A stretch of 64,000 nt of DNA from Chloroflexota bacterium (lineage in GTDB: Bacteria > Chloroflexota > Limnocylindria > QHBO01), in assembly GCA_040902225.1 (NCBI GenBank), contig JBBDXT010000007.1, positions 256,346 through 320,345 on the forward strand, written 5' to 3'. Under the pieces are notes generated by a model. The model had not been told where the DNA came from, did not search any database, and worked only from the letters and a program-made list of their open reading frames with translations. Position 1 is the first letter of the stretch. Each line of letters starts with the position of its first letter. Of the stretch, positions 14,148-36,895 are shown in pieces. The position numbers were made by a program, and so were the translations under genes.

Positions 14148-14167
14148 GATTGGCCGATGAAATGGAG

Positions 14168-14197
14168 AGAGCCGCGGGTCCTGCGTGGTCCGCGGCT
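14168..14197 (-). terminator. Stem-loop (9-bp GC stem GAGCCGCGG/CCGCGGCTC) followed on the minus strand by a U-rich tract; putative terminator of the metzincin-domain gene
   Basis: Perfect inverted repeat with 12-nt loop; downstream minus-strand sequence is tctctccatttcat. Confidence 0.35.
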
Positions 14198-14619
14198 CTT
14201 GCTCCTCGCCGGTGGGCGAGCATCAAAAAACCGTGGACCCGATCTGGCCCACGGCTCGTGGCTTGTGCTTGGCGGCCCTGCCGCCATGGCATCAGCTCGA
14301 GGGGGGCGCAGATCTCCCGCCGTCGGCGCCGTTGGTAGGCGTCGTGAGGCGCTCGATTCGGGCGCTGTGCGAGAGTCTCATGGCTAGAACACACGTCCTC
14401 GTTGAGAGGTTGGCCGGGCGGCACCACACAGCGGTAAGGCAAGGTCGGGGCCGCCGCGGGAGTCTACGACCCGGTCTCTGGCGATGTCAAGCCGATTCCG
14501 GGGTAGTAGTTAGAGGCCGTCAAAGTTGCCGCGGCCGGGGGGAGCGGGGGATCGCCGGCCCTGCCGTCATGTGTTTCATGGGCCCACCTAGGCCTTCTGC
14601 GAAGGTGTGGCGGGCAGTA

Positions 14620-16110
14620 CTAGAGGATCGTGGGCTGCGTACCCGTGCCAACCAGGCATTGCGGCATTTGATTCACGATGAAACGCCAAGCGTTGCGAGC
14701 ATCGTCCGAGGTGAAATGGGGTTGGCTCTCCAAGTAGTAATTGGCTAGACCCCAATCCAGCCAGCCCATGTCCGGACGCCACATCACGTTCTGGGGACCC
14801 GCATGGCCGTAATGGCACAGGCCCAAGTAGTGCCCGATCTCGTGTGCCAGGACGTACTGGAATACATAGGACGGCCAGTGATCGCGGTGGAGGACAGCCG
14901 AGCCACGCTCTCCTCCGCTGTTAACCGTGGAGCAGCAGCTGTCGTTTCGATCCGGTGGAGTCGTGCATGAGGCTGCCCGCGTGCCCTCGAGCTGGCTTCG
15001 GCCAACGGTCAGACCGAAGTGCTCGCTGTCGTCGACGAGGTGATAGCGGAAGTTTCCCAGCGTTAGAAGTGTGCACTCCTCGCCAGACTCACCGTTGCGC
15101 AGTTCCTCGCGCACCAGCCACGGACTAATGAACCCATCCGAGAAGCGGAATTCGTCCTCGCCACTGATGTCATGCACCCCGTAATTGTGGAACCACGAGA
15201 AGCGTTCGCTGTCGTTCCATTCCAGCTTGATGCCAAGGTCATGACACCTCTCCGTGGCGATCCGGATTTTCTCGGCGACCGCCTCATCGGACATCGCGTA
15301 GATGCGTATGCGCCCTGTCCGCCCCTGACTATGGATGTAGCGCGAAAGTGTCCAGCGCGTGACCGGGAAGGAGCTCTCGTTCCCCTGCGAATCGACCTCT
15401 TTCACCACCGTGCGCGGTCGCGGTACGAAGTCGGCCGAATCGAAGCTGAGAAGCCGTGACATGGCATAGAGGTCGATTACGCCGCTCTCGTGCCACTGCC
15501 AGAGTGGGGACGTCGCGCTGTCCAGGCGCAGCACTAGGTGCCTAGCTTGAAGGGGTAGACCCCAGCCAGCCCGATCAAGACCGACACGATCGCGGGCCGC
15601 TTGTAGCGCGACGGGATCCGAGCCGAACTTCGTGTTCAGGAGGTCCGAGACGAAGCCACGCAGCGATGACCGATCGTACTTGCCAACTATGCCTCCAATG
15701 ACGTACCCGCCGAAGATGAAGCGAGCCGCATCCACGAGGAAATCGAGGAAATCCATGAAGAGGTTTCCGAATCCTTCGACGACGCCGACGAAGTCGAGCC
15801 GTAAGAGGTCCCCGAAGATGCCAATTACATCCCGAGCGGCATCGAAGAAATCTCCGATGAGATCCTGAGCGCCCTCTAAGAGCCCATCTAGGAATCCGCC
15901 GACAATGTTGCCGGCATTGCAGGCAAAGTCGCCGCCATTGGCGCACAACCAGTCGGTGCCGTCTTCAATCTGGTCCTGTGCCCAATCAATGCCCGTATCG
16001 ACGGCATCGTCCACCGTGTCGACGACCGCATCGGCCGCGTCCTCCACGGCATCGCCGACAGTCGACGCGACTGACGAGACGGCATTCCCGATGTCACTCA
16101 ACCAGCCCAT
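14620..16110 (-). CDS. Signal-less 496-aa protein: N-terminal acidic Gly/Asp/Phe-rich 11-residue-periodic repeat domain plus C-terminal metzincin-type zinc metallopeptidase domain (HEIGHYLGLCH ... NVMW)
   Basis: Extended HExxHxxGxxH motif with downstream Met-turn candidate. Strong RBS GGAGGT 6 nt before ATG 16110. No signal peptide or TM segment. Lower GC than flanks. Confidence 0.7.
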   Translation of the reverse strand: MGWLSDIGNAVSSVASTVGDAVEDAADAVVDTVDDAVDTGIDWAQDQIEDGTDWLCANGGDFACNAGNIVGGFLDGLLEGAQDLIGDFFDAARDVIGIFGDLLRLDFVGVVEGFGNLFMDFLDFLVDAARFIFGGYVIGGIVGKYDRSSLRGFVSDLLNTKFGSDPVALQAARDRVGLDRAGWGLPLQARHLVLRLDSATSPLWQWHESGVIDLYAMSRLLSFDSADFVPRPRTVVKEVDSQGNESSFPVTRWTLSRYIHSQGRTGRIRIYAMSDEAVAEKIRIATERCHDLGIKLEWNDSERFSWFHNYGVHDISGEDEFRFSDGFISPWLVREELRNGESGEECTLLTLGNFRYHLVDDSEHFGLTVGRSQLEGTRAASCTTPPDRNDSCCSTVNSGGERGSAVLHRDHWPSYVFQYVLAHEIGHYLGLCHYGHAGPQNVMWRPDMGWLDWGLANYYLESQPHFTSDDARNAWRFIVNQMPQCLVGTGTQPTIL

Positions 16111-16441
16111 GCGCCGACCTCCGCAAGTGGCCTTTCCCCATTCATCTCAGCTAGGGTCGCCTCTCGTTCATTGAAACTGCGCCCATCCGTGCGGGCCAGG
16201 CACAGCATGTCGCGCAGATTGCGGCGTGGCGAATCCCCGGCGGCACTCTCCCACTTGGGCAGGACCTTGCCGAAAGCGCGCACGTTCCACGTCGCAATCA
16301 ACAGAATTGCGGTCGAGGGTCTTGGGTGGGATCGAGGAGGCGTCCAGGGCTGCCCGCAGCGTGGCGATATCGGCAAGCGCCTTCGCGGGTGCGCCGCTCG
16401 GGAAGCTATCCATGCCAGATCTCCTCCCCTATTGAGCCGGA

Positions 16442-16885
16442 CTAGAGTCGTTCGTCTAGGCTCTGACCGGCGATGAGATAGTCATCGCGCGAGGCGAATT
16501 GCACGAGCAAAATGATCTCGCTATCGCCTGCTTGCCCGCCAGCAAGTCTCCTTTCCAGCAGGAACGTCGGAACCGGTGATCCCTTGATTTCCACGCGTAC
16601 GCCCCACGAGATGTCCAAATCGCTGACCTGCCCGACCTGCCACGTCAGCTCGGACCAATCGACACTCTTGATATCGTCCACGAACGCCGCCATATCGTTG
16701 TCGTAAACAACGTCTTGAGTCTTGGCTGTCAGGTGCTCCCAAGCAGTCGTGGTGTCGCCGGTAGCCAGCGCGCGCATGAAGTCGTCCGCGGCGCCGCTGG
16801 CTAGGTCGGGGCTCCCAATCTGTGCGCACGCGGTTAGTCCAAAGGCGAAAACAAGGATTGTCCCTGCGATTGCGTGACGGCCCAC
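16442..16885 (-). CDS. Lipoprotein, function unknown
   Basis: GTG start with AGGGGG RBS; signal peptide with lipobox LTAC (GRHAIAGTILVFAFGLTAC); low-GC island. Confidence 0.55.
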   Translation of the reverse strand: MGRHAIAGTILVFAFGLTACAQIGSPDLASGAADDFMRALATGDTTTAWEHLTAKTQDVVYDNDMAAFVDDIKSVDWSELTWQVGQVSDLDISWGVRVEIKGSPVPTFLLERRLAGGQAGDSEIILLVQFASRDDYLIAGQSLDERL

Positions 16886-16895
16886 GGTTAACCCC

Positions 16896-18080
16896 CTATT
16901 GCCAGCCAGCCCGGGACCAGTAGACGTCATTCTGCAGGACGTCGCTCACGCCTGGATTCTGCCGCTTGAAATCTGCGATTGACAAGTCGACGAGATACAC
17001 GTAGCCGCTCGCCTCCAAGCGTTCAAGCGTCGCGAGGTCGGGCACGGTCACATTGGCTGACACGATACCCATGACGCCGACATTGGCCTCGCTCGCCTCC
17101 TCATCGACCCATTCGGGATTCGCCCCTGGCCGCGTCATGACATATGTCACTCTGAGGCCATTGGCATCCGGCTCGGTCACGAATTCCAGATCCGCCACCG
17201 AAACGCCGAGCGCTTCGAAGTCTAAGAACTCGCTCCAAGTGAGCGGGTATGCGAATGTGACCACGCCGTCGGCAGGCCCGAGGTTACTTGTGGTGCGTGC
17301 GAGTTCACGCGTGCCGCGAGCATATGAAATGAGGCCACTGCCTAACTGCGCCGCGAGGTGCACATCCCCATCAGCGGCAAGAGTCGCTGTGTAAGGCCTT
17401 CCATTCGCGACTCTTAGGCTCGCGACATCCTGTGTCGCGGGCGCCGATTCGGGGGGAGCGATCGCGGCGAATTGGGAGTTGGAGGGATAGTAGGTGTCGG
17501 TGTCGTTCGGCAGAGGGGTGTTGCAGCAGTGGGTATCCCACTTGTCGCAGAAGAACGGGCAACCCGCCGTCGAGAGATTTTCGAAGTACTCGAGGTGCCC
17601 ACCATCGGGGTCGTACCTGCAGCAGACCTGGTTCCCGTTGACGTAGTAGGTGTACGAGTGTGACCAACGGACGGAGCTGTAGTACCACGTGTTCGCAGCG
17701 GGGAACGAATTGCTTTCTGAGACGATCTCGGCCTCGTCGTCTTTCGAGTCGCCGTTGTCGTCATCGAGATCCGTGTACGGGTTCAGGATAGTGGTGCCGA
17801 AAAGATAGGCTTCGACGTTGTGATTAAAGTCAGTTTGGTCGATGGTGAACTTGATGCCGTTGGCTTGGTTTGTCCGCTGGTGGGGCGCGTTGGTGGAGTT
17901 CCAAATCATGTAGATCCGCGCCCTGAACGAATCGTCCGTGGTTTTTCGGGTGAACGGGTAGCTATACACGTCGTATTCTTCGTAACTCCACCAGTCGTCG
18001 GTTTCGTGGTTCGCCGACACAGGGCTGCTGAGCGCGGCGCCGACGAAGATTGCCGCAGCAAACACTCGCAGTAGTCGCAC
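16896..18080 (-). CDS. Secreted Tyr/Asn/Trp- and Cys-rich protein, function unknown
   Basis: GTG start with AAGGAG RBS; Sec signal peptide RLLRVFAAAIFVGAALSSPVSA; CC/CxxC clusters; atypical composition and low GC. Confidence 0.55.
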   Translation of the reverse strand: MRLLRVFAAAIFVGAALSSPVSANHETDDWWSYEEYDVYSYPFTRKTTDDSFRARIYMIWNSTNAPHQRTNQANGIKFTIDQTDFNHNVEAYLFGTTILNPYTDLDDDNGDSKDDEAEIVSESNSFPAANTWYYSSVRWSHSYTYYVNGNQVCCRYDPDGGHLEYFENLSTAGCPFFCDKWDTHCCNTPLPNDTDTYYPSNSQFAAIAPPESAPATQDVASLRVANGRPYTATLAADGDVHLAAQLGSGLISYARGTRELARTTSNLGPADGVVTFAYPLTWSEFLDFEALGVSVADLEFVTEPDANGLRVTYVMTRPGANPEWVDEEASEANVGVMGIVSANVTVPDLATLERLEASGYVYLVDLSIADFKRQNPGVSDVLQNDVYWSRAGWQ

Positions 18081-18099
18081 GGGTTGCTCCTTTACCGGC

Positions 18100-18300
18100 G
18101 AGGGCGTTCGAGTAGTAGTCGTAGGTGCTGGACTTGGCGAACAGCAAGATGTACTCATGGCCGGTTACCGGGCGGTCCAAGACAGGCTCTGGCATGTGGG
18201 CGCGAGTTTCACGGAGCAGCTGCCCATCTTCATCATCCGGGAGCGGGCGCTGTTTCGACCAGATGATCATGGAGCGGAGCCACAGTCCCCGCTTTTGCAC
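18100..18300 (-). pseudogene. Remnant of an N4/N6 DNA methyltransferase gene (PF01555-like fragment)
   Basis: About 65 codons matching the post-DPPY region of amino-MTases (MIIWSKQ ... HEYILLFAKSSTYDY); no upstream catalytic motifs, and no methylase-like sequence downstream. Confidence 0.5.
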
Positions 18301-18394
18301 AGCCTGCGCAACGAGGAATGGAATTAGTGTCAGATCCTTGTCCTTGAGTCTGCGATCGTGCGCCGAGCAATCCCGGCCTTCTCGTCATCCTTAA

Positions 18395-18943
18395 GGTTCC
18401 ACACGTTCTGGGGCCCTCGCGCTCGCCACCGGGGGAGCCGTCGCGCTGGCGGCACAGCGGGGCTACTTCGACCAGAACCTCCTCGCCGGGGCGTGGCGGC
18501 TCTGGCCGCTGATCCTGGTCGCCATCGGCTTCTCGATCCTTGTCTCGAGGGGAATGCCGCAAGCTTCACCCTCAATCCCAAAGATGGCTGCGGGGGCCGC
18601 CGCCTGGGAAGTGCCATACGTGGCGGGCGGCGTCGCGGAGTACCTGGACGTCGTGATGTGGATCGTTGTGCCGTTCGGGCCAGGGCCGGCCGACACCGCC
18701 GTGGGTCAGCCGGCCGCAGCCGGCGCAGATCCGGTCACGAGCTGGAATGCACAGCCGCACCGCACAGAGCGCCGCTCAGGGAGCGGGTCGAGGATCTTCG
18801 GGCTGATCCTGATCGGGCTCGGCCTGTACTTCCTCGCGCGGGAGTACCTGCCCGGGGTCGACTTCGATCGGCTCTGGCCGCTGCGGCTCGTCATGCTCGG
18901 CGTGATCCTCCTGTACGGAGCGATCCGGAGCCGCCCAGCCTGA
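18395..18943 (+). pseudogene. Small membrane protein with two WPL-type TM hairpin repeats (DUF5668/LiaF-TM-like), apparently 5'-truncated at the island boundary
   Basis: Open frame from TAA at 18392 with no canonical start before ATG 18554. Repeats GAWRLWPLILVAIGFSIL and DRLWPLRLVMLGVILL. Its 3' 168 nt overlap the tail of the giant GT-C gene on the other strand. Confidence 0.3.
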
Positions 18944-21900
18944 AGTATCCGACCCCGAGCCGACGCTGCTCGCGGCTGCTCGCCGAGCGGCAATGAAGTC
19001 TCGCCCGAAGAGTGCAAAGGCTGCCGCACCCAGCGAGACGACCAGGCCGATCGCCAGCTTGACGCTGTCGGCGCTGAGCAGCTGACCGCGAGGGCCCTGC
19101 GGCGGATCGGGGAACTGGAACGCGTAGTTCCACGGGGCCAGGGCGCGGGCCGCGTTGATGTACCAGTCCGGCATGGCGAGCGCGGACCCGAGCGGGAAGA
19201 TGAGGAGCCCGGCGACCACGGCGAGGACCAGGAAGGCGATCGCCAGGGACCGATAGGCCCACGTCCGGAGGCCCTCGTCCACCACGTACGCCACCGCGAT
19301 CATGGCGATCAGGACGGCGGTGAAATAGTGGTAGTGGAAGGTCGCCCGCTCGATCCGGGTCCAGGGCAGGTACTGGAGCACGAACGCGGCGACGAGGAGG
19401 GTGAGGGCGAGCGATCGGCGACGCCAGGCCTGCACCGCGCACCACAGGATGGCCGGGATGCCGGCCCAGAACAGGATCGGGTTGCCGCCGTTGTAGATGA
19501 CCGCCATCTCGCGGTTGTCGTACGAGTGGCTGTAGAACCAGACCGGCTTCAGGTCGAGCGGCCAGCTCCACCACGGCGAGGCGGCCGGATGCCCGGCCTG
19601 CAGGCCGAAGTGGTAGCCGAACATCTGCGACTGCATCTCGTCCAGCGACCAGCCGTAGCCGGGGCCCAGCTTTTCGATCGAGATGCCGTGCCCCAGCTGG
19701 AGATACGGGATGTAGGCGACGAAGTAGATGAGCAGCGGAACCACCAGCAGGCAGGCCCCGACCCATGGCCAGGCGAAGCCAGCCATCTCGCCGGGGATGT
19801 ACCAGCGCCGGTCGCTGCTCGGCTCCCGGAGGGAGCGCCACGCTCGAGCGAGGAGCAGCAGACCCGCCACCGCCAACATGATCCAGGCGGGCCAGGCGGC
19901 CTGCGCCCCGCGCGCCAGGAAGGCAAAGAGGAACTCGACCGCGCTGCGTGGCTCCCGACCCTCCACGGTCGAATAGGCGATCGCGAAGGCCAGGCCGATC
20001 CCCCCTCCCACCACCCCGATCGGTGGGAGCGCCAGGATGTCCATCGGCGAGAGCTGAATCGGCCGCCGCCAGACCAGCAGCAGCGCCACGGCAAGCGCCA
20101 GGAAGCACACCACCAGGAACGGCCACGGGGCGCCAAAGCCCGCCACGACCGTGATGAAGGCGATCCCCGCCACCAGGAAGAATCTGCCGAATTGCGATCG
20201 GGCCAGCACCAGCACCCACAGCCCGATCAGCGCGTACCAACCCACCCACTTGCTCGCCGCGGCCAGGCCGATCAGGACGCCGACCAGCGGCAGCGCCCAC
20301 CAGGCGCTGCGCGCCCATCGGCCTGACCAGACCTGCCAGAAGAGCGCATAGCCGGCCAAGATGAAGGTCGCCACGAAGATGTCGTTCATCGAGATCCGGC
20401 TCATGACGTAGCTCATCCCGTCGAAGGCCACGAACAGGGCCGCCAGCACCGCGATGCGCCGGCGCGGGAAGAGGGTCGCGGCGAACAGGTAGATGATCCC
20501 GACCAGCGCGGCTCCGAATACGATCCCCGCCAGGCGCCAGGCGAAGGCATTGCTGCCCGCGTCGATCGACACCAGCCGGCTTGGTCCGCCAGCTCCCTCG
20601 TCGGTCGAGACCAGCAGCAAGCCATGGTCGTCCCCCTGGGCCTCGTCGGAGATGTCGAAGGCCATGGCCAGGGCCTCGCCCGGGAGGACGGTCGTGTCGA
20701 AGGCGGCAAAGCCGGCGCTCTGCGTGCCGCCGTTGCCAAGCGGCGAGACGGCCCATACGACCGGCTCATCCGTCCGCTCCCGCACCCCCGCGACGTAGAC
20801 GATGTTGGCCACCTGCTGCCAGCCGATCGCCACCGCCGGACCTGGCAGCGGGACCGTGTCGATCAGCTGCGCGCTCTCATCGAAGACGCTGAGCCCGCCA
20901 AGGACAGGCCCGTGCTCGTCGTCAGCCGGCAGCGGGCCGAGGGGGACCCAGACCTGGAGGTTCTTGCCGCTCCCCTGCACCAGCAGCGGGCCTACCGGGG
21001 TCGAGGGAAGCGCGATCTTGCCATCCGAGCCGACGTCGGTCTCGGGTCTCAGCGTGCCGCCGTCGAGCACGATCAGTCCCGAGCCCGCCCGGTCGACCGC
21101 TACCACCCGCGGGTCGGCGACCTCGCCCGATCCCCCCGGTACGTAGCCGACTCCGGTCGCCACGAGGTCGGAGCTGGCCAGCTCGACGCCCGTCTCCCGC
21201 TCGATCTCGACGATCCCGTTGGGTCCGAGGAAGAGGATCACCGTCTCTCCGTTGGGGACCACGATCTGCGTCACCGCCGCCAGGCCGGTCTCGATCTGGG
21301 CGACGCCGGGCGGTGGACCGCGCTCGCCGAGCTGGCCCAGGAAGGCGGTCATGTCGTAGGCGGACACCGCGCCGCCCGAAGCCAGCCCCACCAGGAGCCG
21401 GTCGCCATCCTCGTCATACGCCATGCTGGCCACCGGGCCCTGGGCGCTCCAGGAAGAGACCTGCTCGCCGGTCAGCACCTCCCGCGCCGTGATCACCTCG
21501 TCTCCGGCCGTGGTGAAGACGATCGACTTCGGTCGGGTCTGCGCCGTCCGCTGCGGAGCGATGGCGATGGCCGTGGCGGGGGCCTCGAGATCGGTCCCGC
21601 CGACGACCTTGTTGGGGTCCGCCACCAAGATCCCGGCGGCGATCAGGTATTTCGCCAGCGGCGGATGAGTCCACTCATACGTGTCACGGGTCCAGCCCTC
21701 CTGCCAGTCGGCCAGCCACTCGGTCGCGGTGCGCGCGTGGTAGACCTCGTCGAAATGGGTGTGCCGCGGCAGCTCCAGGCGCCACAGCCGGAACAGGAAG
21801 GCGGCAAGGATCAGCGTCGCCAGCAGGAGCAGGTCGAGCCGGTCCAGGCGTCGCCGAGGCTCTTCGACGTAGGTCGGATCGCGGCGCAGCCCGGCGGGGA

Positions 21901-23482
21901 GGCGCCATCGCCGAGGCGCCGCGGCGCCCTCGGGCGTGACCGCGGGTGCAGCCACGGGCGCCGAAACGAGCGGCCCCCTTTCGGTCCGCGCGCGTTGCAC
22001 CCCTCCCTCTTGCCGGACGCCCAGCGCCATCTCCGCCGCCCGGACCAGCAGCCAGGCCAGCGCGATCACGATCATCAGCGAGAGGAGGTAGATGCCGGTG
22101 TCGTTGAAGACGACCGTCGCCAGAACCGGGTCGCGCGGCATCGGCTCACGGAAGAGGCCCGGGTTCATGGGATGGTCGCCGCCGGCGAACGAGAAGTCGG
22201 TGGTGTAGAGCCAATAGACGTTCGAGAAGAACGAGAGGGTCAGCACGAAGTAGAGCGCCGCCCATTTCCAGGATCGGGCCACCAGCGGGGCGGCCAGCGC
22301 CAGCGCCGGGAAGAGATAGCGCTCGTGCACGCGGGTCGGCAGCGCGAAGAAGGCGACGGCCAGCACCAGGGCGCACACCAGGATGCCGGCGGGGTCGTCG
22401 CGGCGCGCGACGGTCCACAGCGCAACCAGGGCGGCGATGCCGAAGAGGCCTGCCCCCACGAGCTGCCAGCTGATCGGTGTCGAGCCAATCACGAAGGCGA
22501 TGCCCGATCCATCGGCGCAGGTGGGCGGAAGGGTGTCGCAGCCCCAGCGGTACGCATCGCCCAGGCCAGTCCACGGGTTGCGCCACAGGTTGAAGGCGTT
22601 GATGGTCAGGCCCTTGTAGGTGTTGCTCGCCGCGATGAAGCGGTCGACCAGGCTCAGGTTCGGATCGGCGGGTGCCCAGATGGCAAGGCGGAAGGGCAGG
22701 ATGACCAGGACCAAAGTGCCGAGGCCGGTCGCCAGCGAGGTGAGGATCCTGATCGGATCCGCTCGGCCGGCCTGATCCGGGTCGGATGAGCGGCCGAAGA
22801 GATGGCGCTTGATGCCGACCACCGCGACCAGTGGAATCAGGAAGCCGAACTGGAACTTGACCAGCATGGCGAGCACGGCGCCAGCCGCCGCGGCCTCGGT
22901 CCAGCCGCGAGCGAGCATGTAAAGCGTCGCCAGCACCACGAGCGTGCCGACCGAGTCGACCTGGCCCCAGACCGCGGAGTCGAAGATGGTTCCAGGGTTG
23001 AAGAGATAGATGACAACCGCCACCAGGCCAAGCCGCTCGCCGCTCCACGACCCCAGCCATCCGTCTCCGTAGCGGCGCGCGTAAAGGAAGAGGAGCCAGG
23101 CGACGCCAGCGTCGCCGAGGATCCCCGGCACCTTGACCAGGCCCGGCGTGATCGAGAGCCCGAAGACCGGCCGCAGCAGCTCGCCGATGCCCCCGAGCAG
23201 CCACAGCACGTACATGTAGCCGGGTGGGTAGTCCGCCAGGTAGCCGGGCTGGTAGAACTGGCCGGGCCCTTGGGCGGACATGCGGGCGGCCCAGATGGCG
23301 AAGTCGCCGACGTCCACGCGAAAGCCGGAGAACGGCAGGTACGGCCCGGCGATGACGGCGCGCAGCAGCACGCCGAGGACGATCAGGATGACGACCAGGG
23401 TCGCGGGATCGAGCGGCAGGCCGCGTTCGATTGGCCTCGCGCCCCGCTCCCTGACGGAGTCGCGGGTCATCGGTGACGGCAC
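18776..23482 (-). CDS. 1568-aa polytopic membrane protein: N-terminal GT-C-like domain fused to a Pmt-family (GT39) protein O-mannosyltransferase carrying a ~430-aa insertion in periplasmic loop 1
   Basis: Pmt hallmarks HFDEVYHARTA and HPPLAKYLIAAG, then after the insertion AWRLAGIVFGAAL... VAFDGMSYVMSRISMNDIF (compare Mtb Pmt LICDGVSFVTARTALLDGF) and C-terminal 4TMC region (FYSHSYDNREMAVIYNGGNPILFW). More than 20 predicted TM helices; acidic disordered tail. Confidence 0.7.
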   Translation of the reverse strand: MPSPMTRDSVRERGARPIERGLPLDPATLVVILIVLGVLLRAVIAGPYLPFSGFRVDVGDFAIWAARMSAQGPGQFYQPGYLADYPPGYMYVLWLLGGIGELLRPVFGLSITPGLVKVPGILGDAGVAWLLFLYARRYGDGWLGSWSGERLGLVAVVIYLFNPGTIFDSAVWGQVDSVGTLVVLATLYMLARGWTEAAAAGAVLAMLVKFQFGFLIPLVAVVGIKRHLFGRSSDPDQAGRADPIRILTSLATGLGTLVLVILPFRLAIWAPADPNLSLVDRFIAASNTYKGLTINAFNLWRNPWTGLGDAYRWGCDTLPPTCADGSGIAFVIGSTPISWQLVGAGLFGIAALVALWTVARRDDPAGILVCALVLAVAFFALPTRVHERYLFPALALAAPLVARSWKWAALYFVLTLSFFSNVYWLYTTDFSFAGGDHPMNPGLFREPMPRDPVLATVVFNDTGIYLLSLMIVIALAWLLVRAAEMALGVRQEGGVQRARTERGPLVSAPVAAPAVTPEGAAAPRRWRLPAGLRRDPTYVEEPRRRLDRLDLLLLATLILAAFLFRLWRLELPRHTHFDEVYHARTATEWLADWQEGWTRDTYEWTHPPLAKYLIAAGILVADPNKVVGGTDLEAPATAIAIAPQRTAQTRPKSIVFTTAGDEVITAREVLTGEQVSSWSAQGPVASMAYDEDGDRLLVGLASGGAVSAYDMTAFLGQLGERGPPPGVAQIETGLAAVTQIVVPNGETVILFLGPNGIVEIERETGVELASSDLVATGVGYVPGGSGEVADPRVVAVDRAGSGLIVLDGGTLRPETDVGSDGKIALPSTPVGPLLVQGSGKNLQVWVPLGPLPADDEHGPVLGGLSVFDESAQLIDTVPLPGPAVAIGWQQVANIVYVAGVRERTDEPVVWAVSPLGNGGTQSAGFAAFDTTVLPGEALAMAFDISDEAQGDDHGLLLVSTDEGAGGPSRLVSIDAGSNAFAWRLAGIVFGAALVGIIYLFAATLFPRRRIAVLAALFVAFDGMSYVMSRISMNDIFVATFILAGYALFWQVWSGRWARSAWWALPLVGVLIGLAAASKWVGWYALIGLWVLVLARSQFGRFFLVAGIAFITVVAGFGAPWPFLVVCFLALAVALLLVWRRPIQLSPMDILALPPIGVVGGGIGLAFAIAYSTVEGREPRSAVEFLFAFLARGAQAAWPAWIMLAVAGLLLLARAWRSLREPSSDRRWYIPGEMAGFAWPWVGACLLVVPLLIYFVAYIPYLQLGHGISIEKLGPGYGWSLDEMQSQMFGYHFGLQAGHPAASPWWSWPLDLKPVWFYSHSYDNREMAVIYNGGNPILFWAGIPAILWCAVQAWRRRSLALTLLVAAFVLQYLPWTRIERATFHYHYFTAVLIAMIAVAYVVDEGLRTWAYRSLAIAFLVLAVVAGLLIFPLGSALAMPDWYINAARALAPWNYAFQFPDPPQGPRGQLLSADSVKLAIGLVVSLGAAAFALFGRDFIAARRAAASSVGSGSDTSGWAAPDRSVQEDHAEHDEPQRPEPIEVDPGQVLPREEVQAEPDQDQPEDPRPAP

Positions 23483-36530: not shown

Positions 36531-36895
36531 TGGTGGAGATGGGGGAGAATCGAACTCCCCGTCCAGAACCGAGTCGCCGGGAACGTACTACAGATATTTC
36601 CGGCCTATTTCGAGCTTCGCCTGCGGGCCCCCGACCGGCGGGGTGCTCCGCTCGCTATCCGGCTGACCTTGCGGCCCTTTGACGCCACTCACCGGAGTCG
36701 GCGGCGCCGCATCTCGCCTTGTGACGCCTTCACGGCCCGGCGAGAGAGGGCCGTGTCGGCGCTCGTCGCTACTTAGGCGGCGAGAGCGTAACTATTCTTG
36801 CCAGTTACTGGCTTGCCCGCGGTTTTACGAGGCCATGCGGGCGACCTCGACCTGCAGTTCCCGGTCCCTGAGCCCTGTCGAAACCTGACATCCCC
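36531..36895 (-). ncRNA. ssrA: tmRNA (SsrA), tag reading frame ...GKNSYALAA-stop
   Basis: 5' end GGGGAUGUCAGGUUUCGACAGGG; 3' tRNA-like end GGGGAGUUCGAUUCUCCCCAUCUCCACCA; internal ORF ending UAC GCU CUC GCC GCC UAA; adjacent smpB. Confidence 0.85.

Follow-up and report, generated by a model that had tools for sequence, protein, structure and literature searches.

A strain-variable low-GC islet with a leaderless metzincin gene in a Limnocylindria genome: a probable mosaic of separate acquisitions

In this paper we describe a low-GC islet in a Chloroflexota bacterium of the class Limnocylindria. The islet carries a gene for a leaderless protein of the metzincin type, a gene pair for a secreted protein and a lipoprotein, and the remains of other genes. 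It lies in a stretch of 64,000 nucleotides (assembly GCA_040902225.1, contig JBBDXT010000007.1, positions 256,346 to 320,345), which we call the window and whose own numbering is used throughout. On one side it is bordered by the promoter and leader of an operon for an ABC-2 transporter and a GNAT protein, on the other by the remains of a LiaF-like and a PspC-like gene and then the gene of a giant GT-C glycosyltransferase. L and P numbers are our labels for loci and proteins. The features of the locus are the following:

14148..14531, minus strand: promoter and leader of the ABC-2/GNAT operon, part of the backbone (66% GC; alignable in 51 fetched loci)
14532..18405, no strand: refined extent of the low-GC islet, read as foreign (3.87 kb, 60.1% GC; from flank homology and composition)
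14532..16194, minus strand: segment with the metzincin gene, read as a younger single-gene insertion (85 nt upstream and about 88 nt downstream of the gene; other content in L092 and L008)
14620..16110, minus strand: metzincin gene, 496 amino acids, leaderless, with the motif HEIGHYLGLCH
about 16179..16413, minus strand: N-terminal stub, with a frameshift, of a nuclease gene of the endonuclease/exonuclease/phosphatase (EEP) family (LLIATWNVRAFG...; tblastn with the 145-residue homologue of L008, in two frames)
16442..16885, minus strand: lipoprotein gene, 147 amino acids (GTG start at 16885 after the Shine-Dalgarno (SD) sequence GGGGG; signal and lipobox LTAC)
16896..18080, minus strand: gene of a Sec-secreted protein, 394 amino acids (GTG start at 18080 after AAGGAG; signal MRLLRVFAAAIFVGAALSSPVSA)
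18108..18300, minus strand: some 60 codons from the interior of a type II N6/N4 DNA methyltransferase gene (Pfam and PADLOC)
18406..18550, plus strand: remnant of a LiaF-like/toastrack membrane-protein gene (blastn, tblastn, and Pfam on the intact homologue of L009)
18554..18943, plus strand: degraded PspC-like gene (Pfam; tblastn with the PspC proteins of L009 and L014 covers residues 42-152 only)
18776..23482, minus strand: GT-C/PMT-family glycosyltransferase gene, 1568 amino acids, the right backbone flank (Pfam PMT and PMT_4TMC)

A preliminary description of this DNA had outlined an island of about 4.2 kb at 14150-18394, in which the GC content was said to drop to 45-58%. The drop is real, as GC is 60.7% in this interval and 68.9% elsewhere in the window, where no other stretch of 4.2 kb is as low. 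In a sliding window the value falls from about 0.69-0.72 to 0.55-0.62 at roughly 14.5-18.4 kb. The size of the drop was overstated, since the 100-nt bins across the interval range from 51% to 69% GC, with none below 51%. The tetranucleotide distance is maximal at 14501, about 4.9 standard deviations above the window mean and the strongest outlier of the window, so that the composition is not uniform by this measure either. GC at third codon positions (GC3) is 0.73, 0.69 and 0.74 in the three intact islet genes against 0.89-0.94 in the ABC, GT-C and other backbone genes, and because of this difference the drop is not an amino-acid effect. The encoded proteins are atypical as well, in line with what had been noticed earlier, with more Asn, Tyr, Trp, Phe, Ser and Thr and less Arg, Ala and Pro. 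Homology of the backbone to relatives (blastn) runs from the ABC gene to about 14,493-14,538 and is found again from 18,406 on; in L021 and L023 these two flank points are only about 80-90 bp apart. From this break and restart we place the islet at 14,532-18,405. The left ~380 nt of the earlier interval are conserved backbone.

The islet proteins find a match of 100% identity in a Chloroflexota MAG (metagenome-assembled genome). For the comparison with other genomes, the C-terminal 599 amino acids of the GT-C protein were scanned against 185,579 species genomes. This gave 80 loci, labelled mostly as Limnocylindria, Chloroflexia and Chloroflexota metagenome-assembled genomes (MAGs), with five under other phylum labels, and we checked them for the island genes and for synteny by tblastn with the window proteins. 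The GT-C protein is 55-95% identical in these 80 genomes. The gene order GT-C, ABC ATPase, ABC-2 permease, GNAT is kept in about 50 of them, which answers the earlier question whether the operon stands beside the giant gene elsewhere; the spacer holds a PspC-like and LiaF-like pair, nothing, or other cargo. Typically the spacer between the GT-C and ABC ATPase genes is 1.7-2.0 kb long (about 30 of the 50 loci), has a host-like GC content of 67-71% and contains a PspC-like gene (~150 amino acids) and a LiaF-like/toastrack gene (~320 amino acids), which are intact in 52 loci. It measures only 368-491 bp in L017, L025 and L011, and these include the closest relatives, L011 and L017, whose ABC ATPase is 95% identical (87% in L025). 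Homologues of the metzincin, the lipoprotein and the secreted protein were found at none of the 80 loci. Some relatives have a different cargo here, either a TetR gene with a PPDK_N/PEP-utilizer enzyme gene or open reading frames (ORFs) with low GC3 and without a Pfam match (L015, L018, L055, L063, L080). The alternative cargo and the variable spacer at the same place indicate that the site is a hotspot. The horizontal acquisition that had been proposed is well supported by the GC3 deficit, the tetranucleotide outlier and the absence of the genes from this locus in 80 of 80 reference genomes.

The alternative cargo shows some features of its own. In L014, L032, L044, L079 and L089 the TetR gene and the ~730-residue PPDK_N/PEP-utilizer enzyme lie between the LiaF-like gene and the ABC leader, in both orientations and with host-like GC3, and the enzyme resembles rifampicin phosphotransferase or phosphoenolpyruvate (PEP) synthase. 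At the hotspot in L015 (13388-16072) there are three ORFs with a GC3 of 0.72-0.78 and no Pfam match. One of them, which begins ...YLWDRNFGLPQL..., recalls Rhs/YD-repeat C-terminal regions, on impression only.

Several genes at the locus are present only as remains. The EEP stub at 16179-16413 adds a feature to the earlier inventory of the islet. Its 145-residue homologue in L008 matches positions 1-49 of 225 of Pfam Exo_endo_phos (E 4.4e-5), and the point of breakage differs between the window, L092, L091 and L008. The methyltransferase fragment reported before at the right end of the islet was recovered with Pfam (N6_N4_Mtase, PF01555, positions 68-114 of 221, E 9e-5; 22.9 bits, below the threshold of 26.7) and with PADLOC (MTase_II, E 4.9e-9); the methyltransferase domain, which when complete has SAM-binding and catalytic (D/S)PP(Y/F) motifs, is incomplete, and 18108-18300 is a remnant. 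The equivalent interval of L009 holds unrelated sequence and no methyltransferase stub. At the right boundary a small membrane-protein gene is truncated, as had been seen: codons 12-56 (18,416-18,550) of a LiaF-like gene of about 319 amino acids are left, and the start and the 3' 260 codons are lost. The neighbouring PspC-like gene is degraded too; most of the PspC domain is gone and the C-terminal LiaI/LiaF-type transmembrane part is kept. It is convergent with the GT-C gene and overlaps its end. This genome appears to have lost an envelope-stress-type module of LiaF-like and PspC-like proteins.

Metagenome relatives carry partial versions of the islet at the same site. L009 and L010 (~79% nucleotide identity) have the GT-C gene, intact PspC-like and LiaF-like genes, the secreted-protein and lipoprotein genes and the 145-residue EEP stub. 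In L008 the EEP stub is followed by a BNR-like gene of 396 amino acids, an M23/FG-GAP gene of 490 amino acids and then the ABC leader. L092 has the GT-C gene, the pair, the EEP stub, 334 unrelated bp and the ABC leader, and no metzincin gene. Homology of this shared layer stops at window position 16,195 in L008-L010 and L091 and at 16,246 in L092. The differing contents and breakpoints of these loci indicate that the metzincin segment is a separate single-gene insertion, and the absence of the methyltransferase stub from the L009 interval indicates a third event. The pair shares about 80% nucleotide identity with L008 and L092, equal to that of the backbone (78-86%), and its GC3 in L008 and L009 is 0.71-0.72 against 0.92-0.96 in their own backbone. 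Because of this backbone-like identity and the same GC3 deficit, acquisition of the pair probably predates the split of these lineages, and its composition has not yet moved towards that of the host.

We consider it likely that the islet at 14,532-18,405 is a mosaic, built from horizontally acquired DNA in three or more separate events at a Limnocylindria hotspot that varies between strains. The hotspot would be the short gap from the ABC-2/GNAT promoter and leader to the start of the LiaF-like/PspC-like pair beside the giant GT-C gene. An older layer would consist of the secreted-protein/lipoprotein pair and the EEP nuclease stub, which a few metagenome relatives also carry at this site. The metzincin insertion of 1.66 kb would be younger and would have replaced the rest of the nuclease gene, and the methyltransferase stub, specific to this genome, would mark a further insertion that has since been deleted. 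The same rearrangements would have destroyed the LiaF-like gene and crippled the PspC-like gene.

On the way in which these segments entered the locus, the searches gave the following results. There is no tRNA gene in the window, and in the islet neither an ORF of integrase size nor an Rfam match was found. Flanking direct or inverted repeats amount to imperfect matches of 12-25 nt at chance level. These results bear out the earlier remark that integrase, tRNA and direct repeats are lacking and that the mobilisation mechanism is not identifiable. The segments most likely came in through illegitimate or homology-facilitated recombination and not by site-specific integration, which we infer from the absence of evidence for the latter. 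A near-identical direct repeat of 15 nt, CACGTTCTGGGG(A/C)CC, is found at 18402-18416, exactly on the right junction and inside the LiaF-like remnant, and at 14785-14799, as the codons for GPQNV within the metzincin gene. This repeat is within chance expectation and could be a microhomology.

The metzincin protein is composed of an N-terminal helical bundle (residues 2-176) and a catalytic domain (about 185-490). Its zinc motif HEIGHYLGLCH (residues 423-433) fits the extended pattern HEXXHXXGXXH/D. In an alignment of 37 homologues (A1) H423, E424, H427, G430 and H433 are invariant, and so is the downstream M443 (QNVM), the predicted Met-turn. The alignment is conserved over its full length, strongly so at the extreme N-terminus, and in the catalytic half six Cys are nearly invariant. 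The AlphaFold2 model (pLDDT 85.6, pTM 0.88) shows four to five long helices over residues 2-176 and then an alpha/beta domain with the metzincin catalytic fold, which is defined by a five-stranded sheet, an active-site helix and a C-terminal helix. Its structural neighbours are mostly extracellular proteases or toxins, for example fragilysin. The scores stay below the curated thresholds for Peptidase_M10 (17.2 against 24 bits) and Reprolysin_4 (16.7 against 22) in Pfam, and for DUF4953 (14.9 against 24.2) and TIGR03952 (15.4 against 208), and each of these matches spans only about 18-45 residues around the motif. On account of the invariant motif and Met, the sub-threshold family matches and the model, the 496-residue protein belongs to the metzincin clan proper but falls outside all curated families tested. 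The earlier identification of a metzincin-domain protein without a signal therefore stands; no signal peptide was found in it or in any of its homologues.

The family comprises 64 homologue clusters with 40-53% identity, barring the exact match to the source MAG. The labelled members come from Chloroflexota, Gammaproteobacteria, Streptomyces and a haloarchaeon (26%), and most members are metagenome proteins without a label. The annotations read hypothetical protein or, in one automatic case, 'Matrixin', and our literature search gave nothing specific to this family. One homologue, P0037, has a weak match to Pfam M54 (E 0.01). The precomputed annotation of P0037 names PF27499, which is not in the Pfam copy that we searched, so a recent Pfam release may already define a family for part of these proteins. 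A search with residues 1-180 against 1.84 billion representatives returned 64 proteins, nearly all of which are ~490-540 amino acids long and have the same architecture, or are fragments of it. To judge from these proteins the bundle is private to the metzincin family; we had considered it as a promiscuous trafficking domain and rejected this because it is found only in this architecture. Residues 4-160 match phage tape-measure proteins weakly (phrog_58, E 2.4e-7), which is possibly a matter of composition.

The gene has its own SD sequence, GGAGG, in its 85-nt upstream region. Across seven genomic contexts no conserved neighbour was found; in the six contexts other than the islet, which are unrelated to each other, it is a solitary gene, and some copies adjoin IS110 or Mu-transposase genes. 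We infer from sequence and model that the metzincin is probably an active, autonomously regulated zinc endopeptidase and that the bundle may serve as an intramolecular latency or targeting module.

The other two intact genes form a pair. The lipoprotein gene starts 10 nt past the stop of the upstream secreted-protein gene, and the two are translationally coupled. An SD sequence is visible for all three intact minus-strand genes of the islet, as had been described. The lipoprotein signal ends in ...ILVFAFGLTAC, in agreement with the lipobox pattern [LVI][ASTVI][GAS]C, and Cys35 with the preceding L-(T/A)-(A/G) is conserved in eight homologues with 36-86% identity (A4). The earlier call of a lipoprotein thus agrees with an invariant lipobox Cys, lipidation is predicted, and we set the start at the GTG at 16885. 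Its only matches in Pfam, NCBIfam, PHROGs and PADLOC are sub-threshold ones to NCBIfam Rv0361_Cterm (E 0.006) and to two PHROG families (E 0.04-0.1). The secreted protein has 15 homologue clusters (alignment A2) and belongs to no Pfam, NCBIfam, PHROG or PADLOC family. It had been called a Sec-secreted Cys/Tyr-rich protein; it is Sec-secreted and rich in Tyr, as well as in Asn, Trp and Thr, but Cys makes up only 1.5%. Its N-terminal domain is beta-rich with the conserved motifs HNVEAY, DDDNGD.K.DE.EIVSE and CDKWDTH, and its C-terminal domain is alpha/beta. In PADLOC-DB none of the three intact islet proteins found a match, and only the methyltransferase stub did.

The two genes co-occur strictly in seven loci. 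Together with the translational coupling, this suggests a two-component envelope module on mobile DNA. The pair is found without the metzincin in L092, L008-L010, L091, L006 and L007. In L007 it adjoins a phage-type integrase and a resolvase gene, in L091 a HEPN gene, and in L006 it has yet another unrelated context; such neighbours in other genomes indicate that it behaves as a mobile pair. In L006, L007 and L091 its GC3 matches that of the neighbouring genes, and the L006 and L007 contigs have about 59-64% GC. No evidence was found that the metzincin works with the adjacent pair. In P0074, from a JGI contig of 1746 bp, the last ~54 residues of Cas1 (Pfam E 3.5e-7) are joined to part of the secreted protein, at 76% identity. 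This suggests that in a relative the secreted-protein gene has another rearrangement beside it, at a CRISPR-Cas locus.

There are several points that weigh against our interpretation of the islet and its genes. The order of events is read from a handful of short metagenome contigs without phylogenetic placement, and a gain of the metzincin here is not formally separable from its loss in L092. Searches for a mobility gene, a tRNA or a target-site duplication were negative, so the route of entry given above is presumed. The protease activity, the role of the bundle and the localisation of the metzincin are predictions. Its six nearly invariant Cys would be in keeping with a place outside the cytoplasm, but signal peptides are lacking in all homologues. 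Finally, the AlphaFold2 model of the secreted protein is poor (pLDDT 59.8) and confident only for residues ~220-385, which belong to the C-terminal domain.

Among the alternatives, the one that survives best concerns the function of the metzincin. It could be a leaderless toxin, secreted or contact-dependent, or an anti-phage or abortive-infection effector, with the bundle as a membrane-active or secretion-targeting domain. The sporadic spread of the family across phyla (Chloroflexota, Gammaproteobacteria, Streptomyces and a distant haloarchaeal member), the IS110 and Mu-transposase neighbours of some copies, the tape-measure similarity of the bundle, the conserved N-terminus and Cys residues and the resemblance to extracellular proteases and toxins such as fragilysin would all fit. 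Against it, no conserved immunity, chaperone or secretion gene is present in the seven contexts; the N-terminal domain is never joined to another toxin domain, PADLOC gives no match, and the tape-measure similarity may reflect only a helical composition rich in Ala, Gly, Val and Asp. We consider this function unlikely. A bolder version, which we hold to be slightly less likely again, sees a new kind of leaderless metzincin whose Gly/Ala/Val/Asp-rich bundle is a membrane-active device for self-delivery or latency, and whose gene is a horizontally traded weapon or defence effector that works without a dedicated secretion or immunity partner.

For the islet as a whole, the preliminary description had favoured one horizontally acquired cassette, possibly what remains of a mobile element with a restriction-modification system, whose cargo resembles an effector or toxin and envelope partners. 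Spelled out, the three genes would be a functional unit of a protease effector or toxin with envelope or immunity partners, left behind by a single such element. This can be understood from the three genes on the same strand with similar GC3 (0.69-0.74), from the methyltransferase stub at one end, and from the integrase and resolvase near the pair in L007. The parts do not travel together, however. The seven pair-bearing loci named above lack the metzincin, the metzincin stands without the pair in six other contexts, and its segment has boundaries of its own (14,532-16,194) inside the broken EEP gene. The methyltransferase stub, which had suggested the restriction-modification element, is missing in relatives that share the pair. 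A single cassette is therefore improbable and largely refuted by the independent distribution of its parts, and the same holds for the idea of an effector with envelope partners, as the metzincin is solitary elsewhere and the pair occurs without it.

It is very improbable that the low GC is native, arising from lineage-specific genes with an unusual amino acid composition and no horizontal transfer. The amino acid bias of the proteins is real, and the pair is kept at the same locus in L008-L010 and L092. However, the deficit is greatest at synonymous third positions (15-25 points), the pair is equally deficient in L008 and L009, the genes are missing from all 80 reference genomes, and the pair is compositionally at home in the L006 and L007 contigs. 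A chimeric join of reads from another organism, which might be suspected because the source is a MAG and NCBI lists the metzincin as 'partial' (P0001), can practically be dismissed, as in a second, independent assembly from Logan (L093, 13.8 kb) the genes from GT-C to GT4 follow each other in identical order and the metzincin gene stands among them at full length, and as L008-L010 and L092 have partial versions of the islet with the same flanks.

The separate acquisitions that we prefer resemble the hotspot islets known between core genes, with their foreign composition, variable presence in close relatives, alternative cargo, stubs and damaged residents. Like a classical genomic island, the islet is atypical in composition and missing from close relatives, but an integrase, a tRNA or tmRNA target, direct repeats and an IS element are not found. 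The metzincin itself shares the motif HEXXHXXGXXH and the invariant downstream Met with the pappalysins (M43; ulilysin, mirolysin) and the adamalysins or ADAM proteins (M12B; atrolysin C, fragilysin). Unlike these, it is only 12-20% identical to them, and the Pfam and NCBIfam models for M10, M12B, M54 and BF0631 match 20-40 residues of the motif region below threshold. It is a solitary gene and has a unique N-terminal helical bundle of about 175 residues in place of a signal peptide and prodomain. The residue after the third His, which is typically Asp, Ser, Glu or Pro in metzincin families, is Tyr or variable here. Archaemetzincins (M54) are cytosolic and leaderless and carry the Cys4 signature HEXXHXXGXXHCX4C...CXXC. 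The islet metzincin is likewise leaderless and has several conserved Cys near the catalytic motif, but it lacks the Cys4 signature as such, its catalytic domain is much larger and the helical domain is additional. Polymorphic toxin systems include metallopeptidase toxin domains (Zhang et al. 2012, PMC3482391). As in these toxins, a non-catalytic N-terminal region precedes a C-terminal metallopeptidase and the spread is sporadic, as if by horizontal transfer; unlike them, the metzincin has an N-terminal domain that is not shared with other toxin domains, no Pfam trafficking domain and no adjacent conserved immunity gene in its seven contexts, so it does not qualify as a polymorphic toxin or a toxin-immunity module.

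In our reading, what seemed to be a single exotic effector cassette consists of layered, unrelated acquisitions and decayed stubs at a recombination hotspot. It illustrates the everyday turnover of the accessory genome in Limnocylindria, an uncultured class of soil and freshwater. The new elements are the leaderless metzincins encoded by solitary genes, a rare family of about 60 clusters in billions of proteins that is spread across phyla and has a confident model, an envelope pair without a known family, and a conserved leader-peptide/terminator element upstream of the ABC-2/GNAT operon that is outside Rfam. The novelty is otherwise limited, as this is ordinary genome flux.

The leader of the ABC-2/GNAT operon belongs to the conserved backbone; all but one (L008) of the 51 loci in which it was aligned come from the scan of Limnocylindria and Chloroflexota genomes. 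The promoter, TTGACA-18-TAGACT, lies at 14490..14461 on the minus strand and is followed by a 5' leader of about 310 nt. The leader contains an SD sequence and after it an ORF of 28-30 codons, which occurs in 16 of 16 aligned relatives and in which indels are multiples of three and the C-terminus (D/G)GRS(A/V)P is conserved. The alignment (A3, RNAalifold) further shows an invariant hairpin, a second hairpin and an invariant block, GGGAGATCTG(C/T)GCCC, which is able to pair with the 5' arm of an intrinsic terminator. The terminator is perfectly conserved (CCGTGGGCC-AGATC-GGGTCCACGG, then T6). The leader looks like a candidate leader-peptide transcription attenuator for the operon, to judge from these conserved elements. 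Rfam has no match in it; the sole Rfam match of the window is a tmRNA gene (RF00023, 133.9 bits) at 36531-36895 on the minus strand, which lies 18 kb away and is unrelated to the islet.

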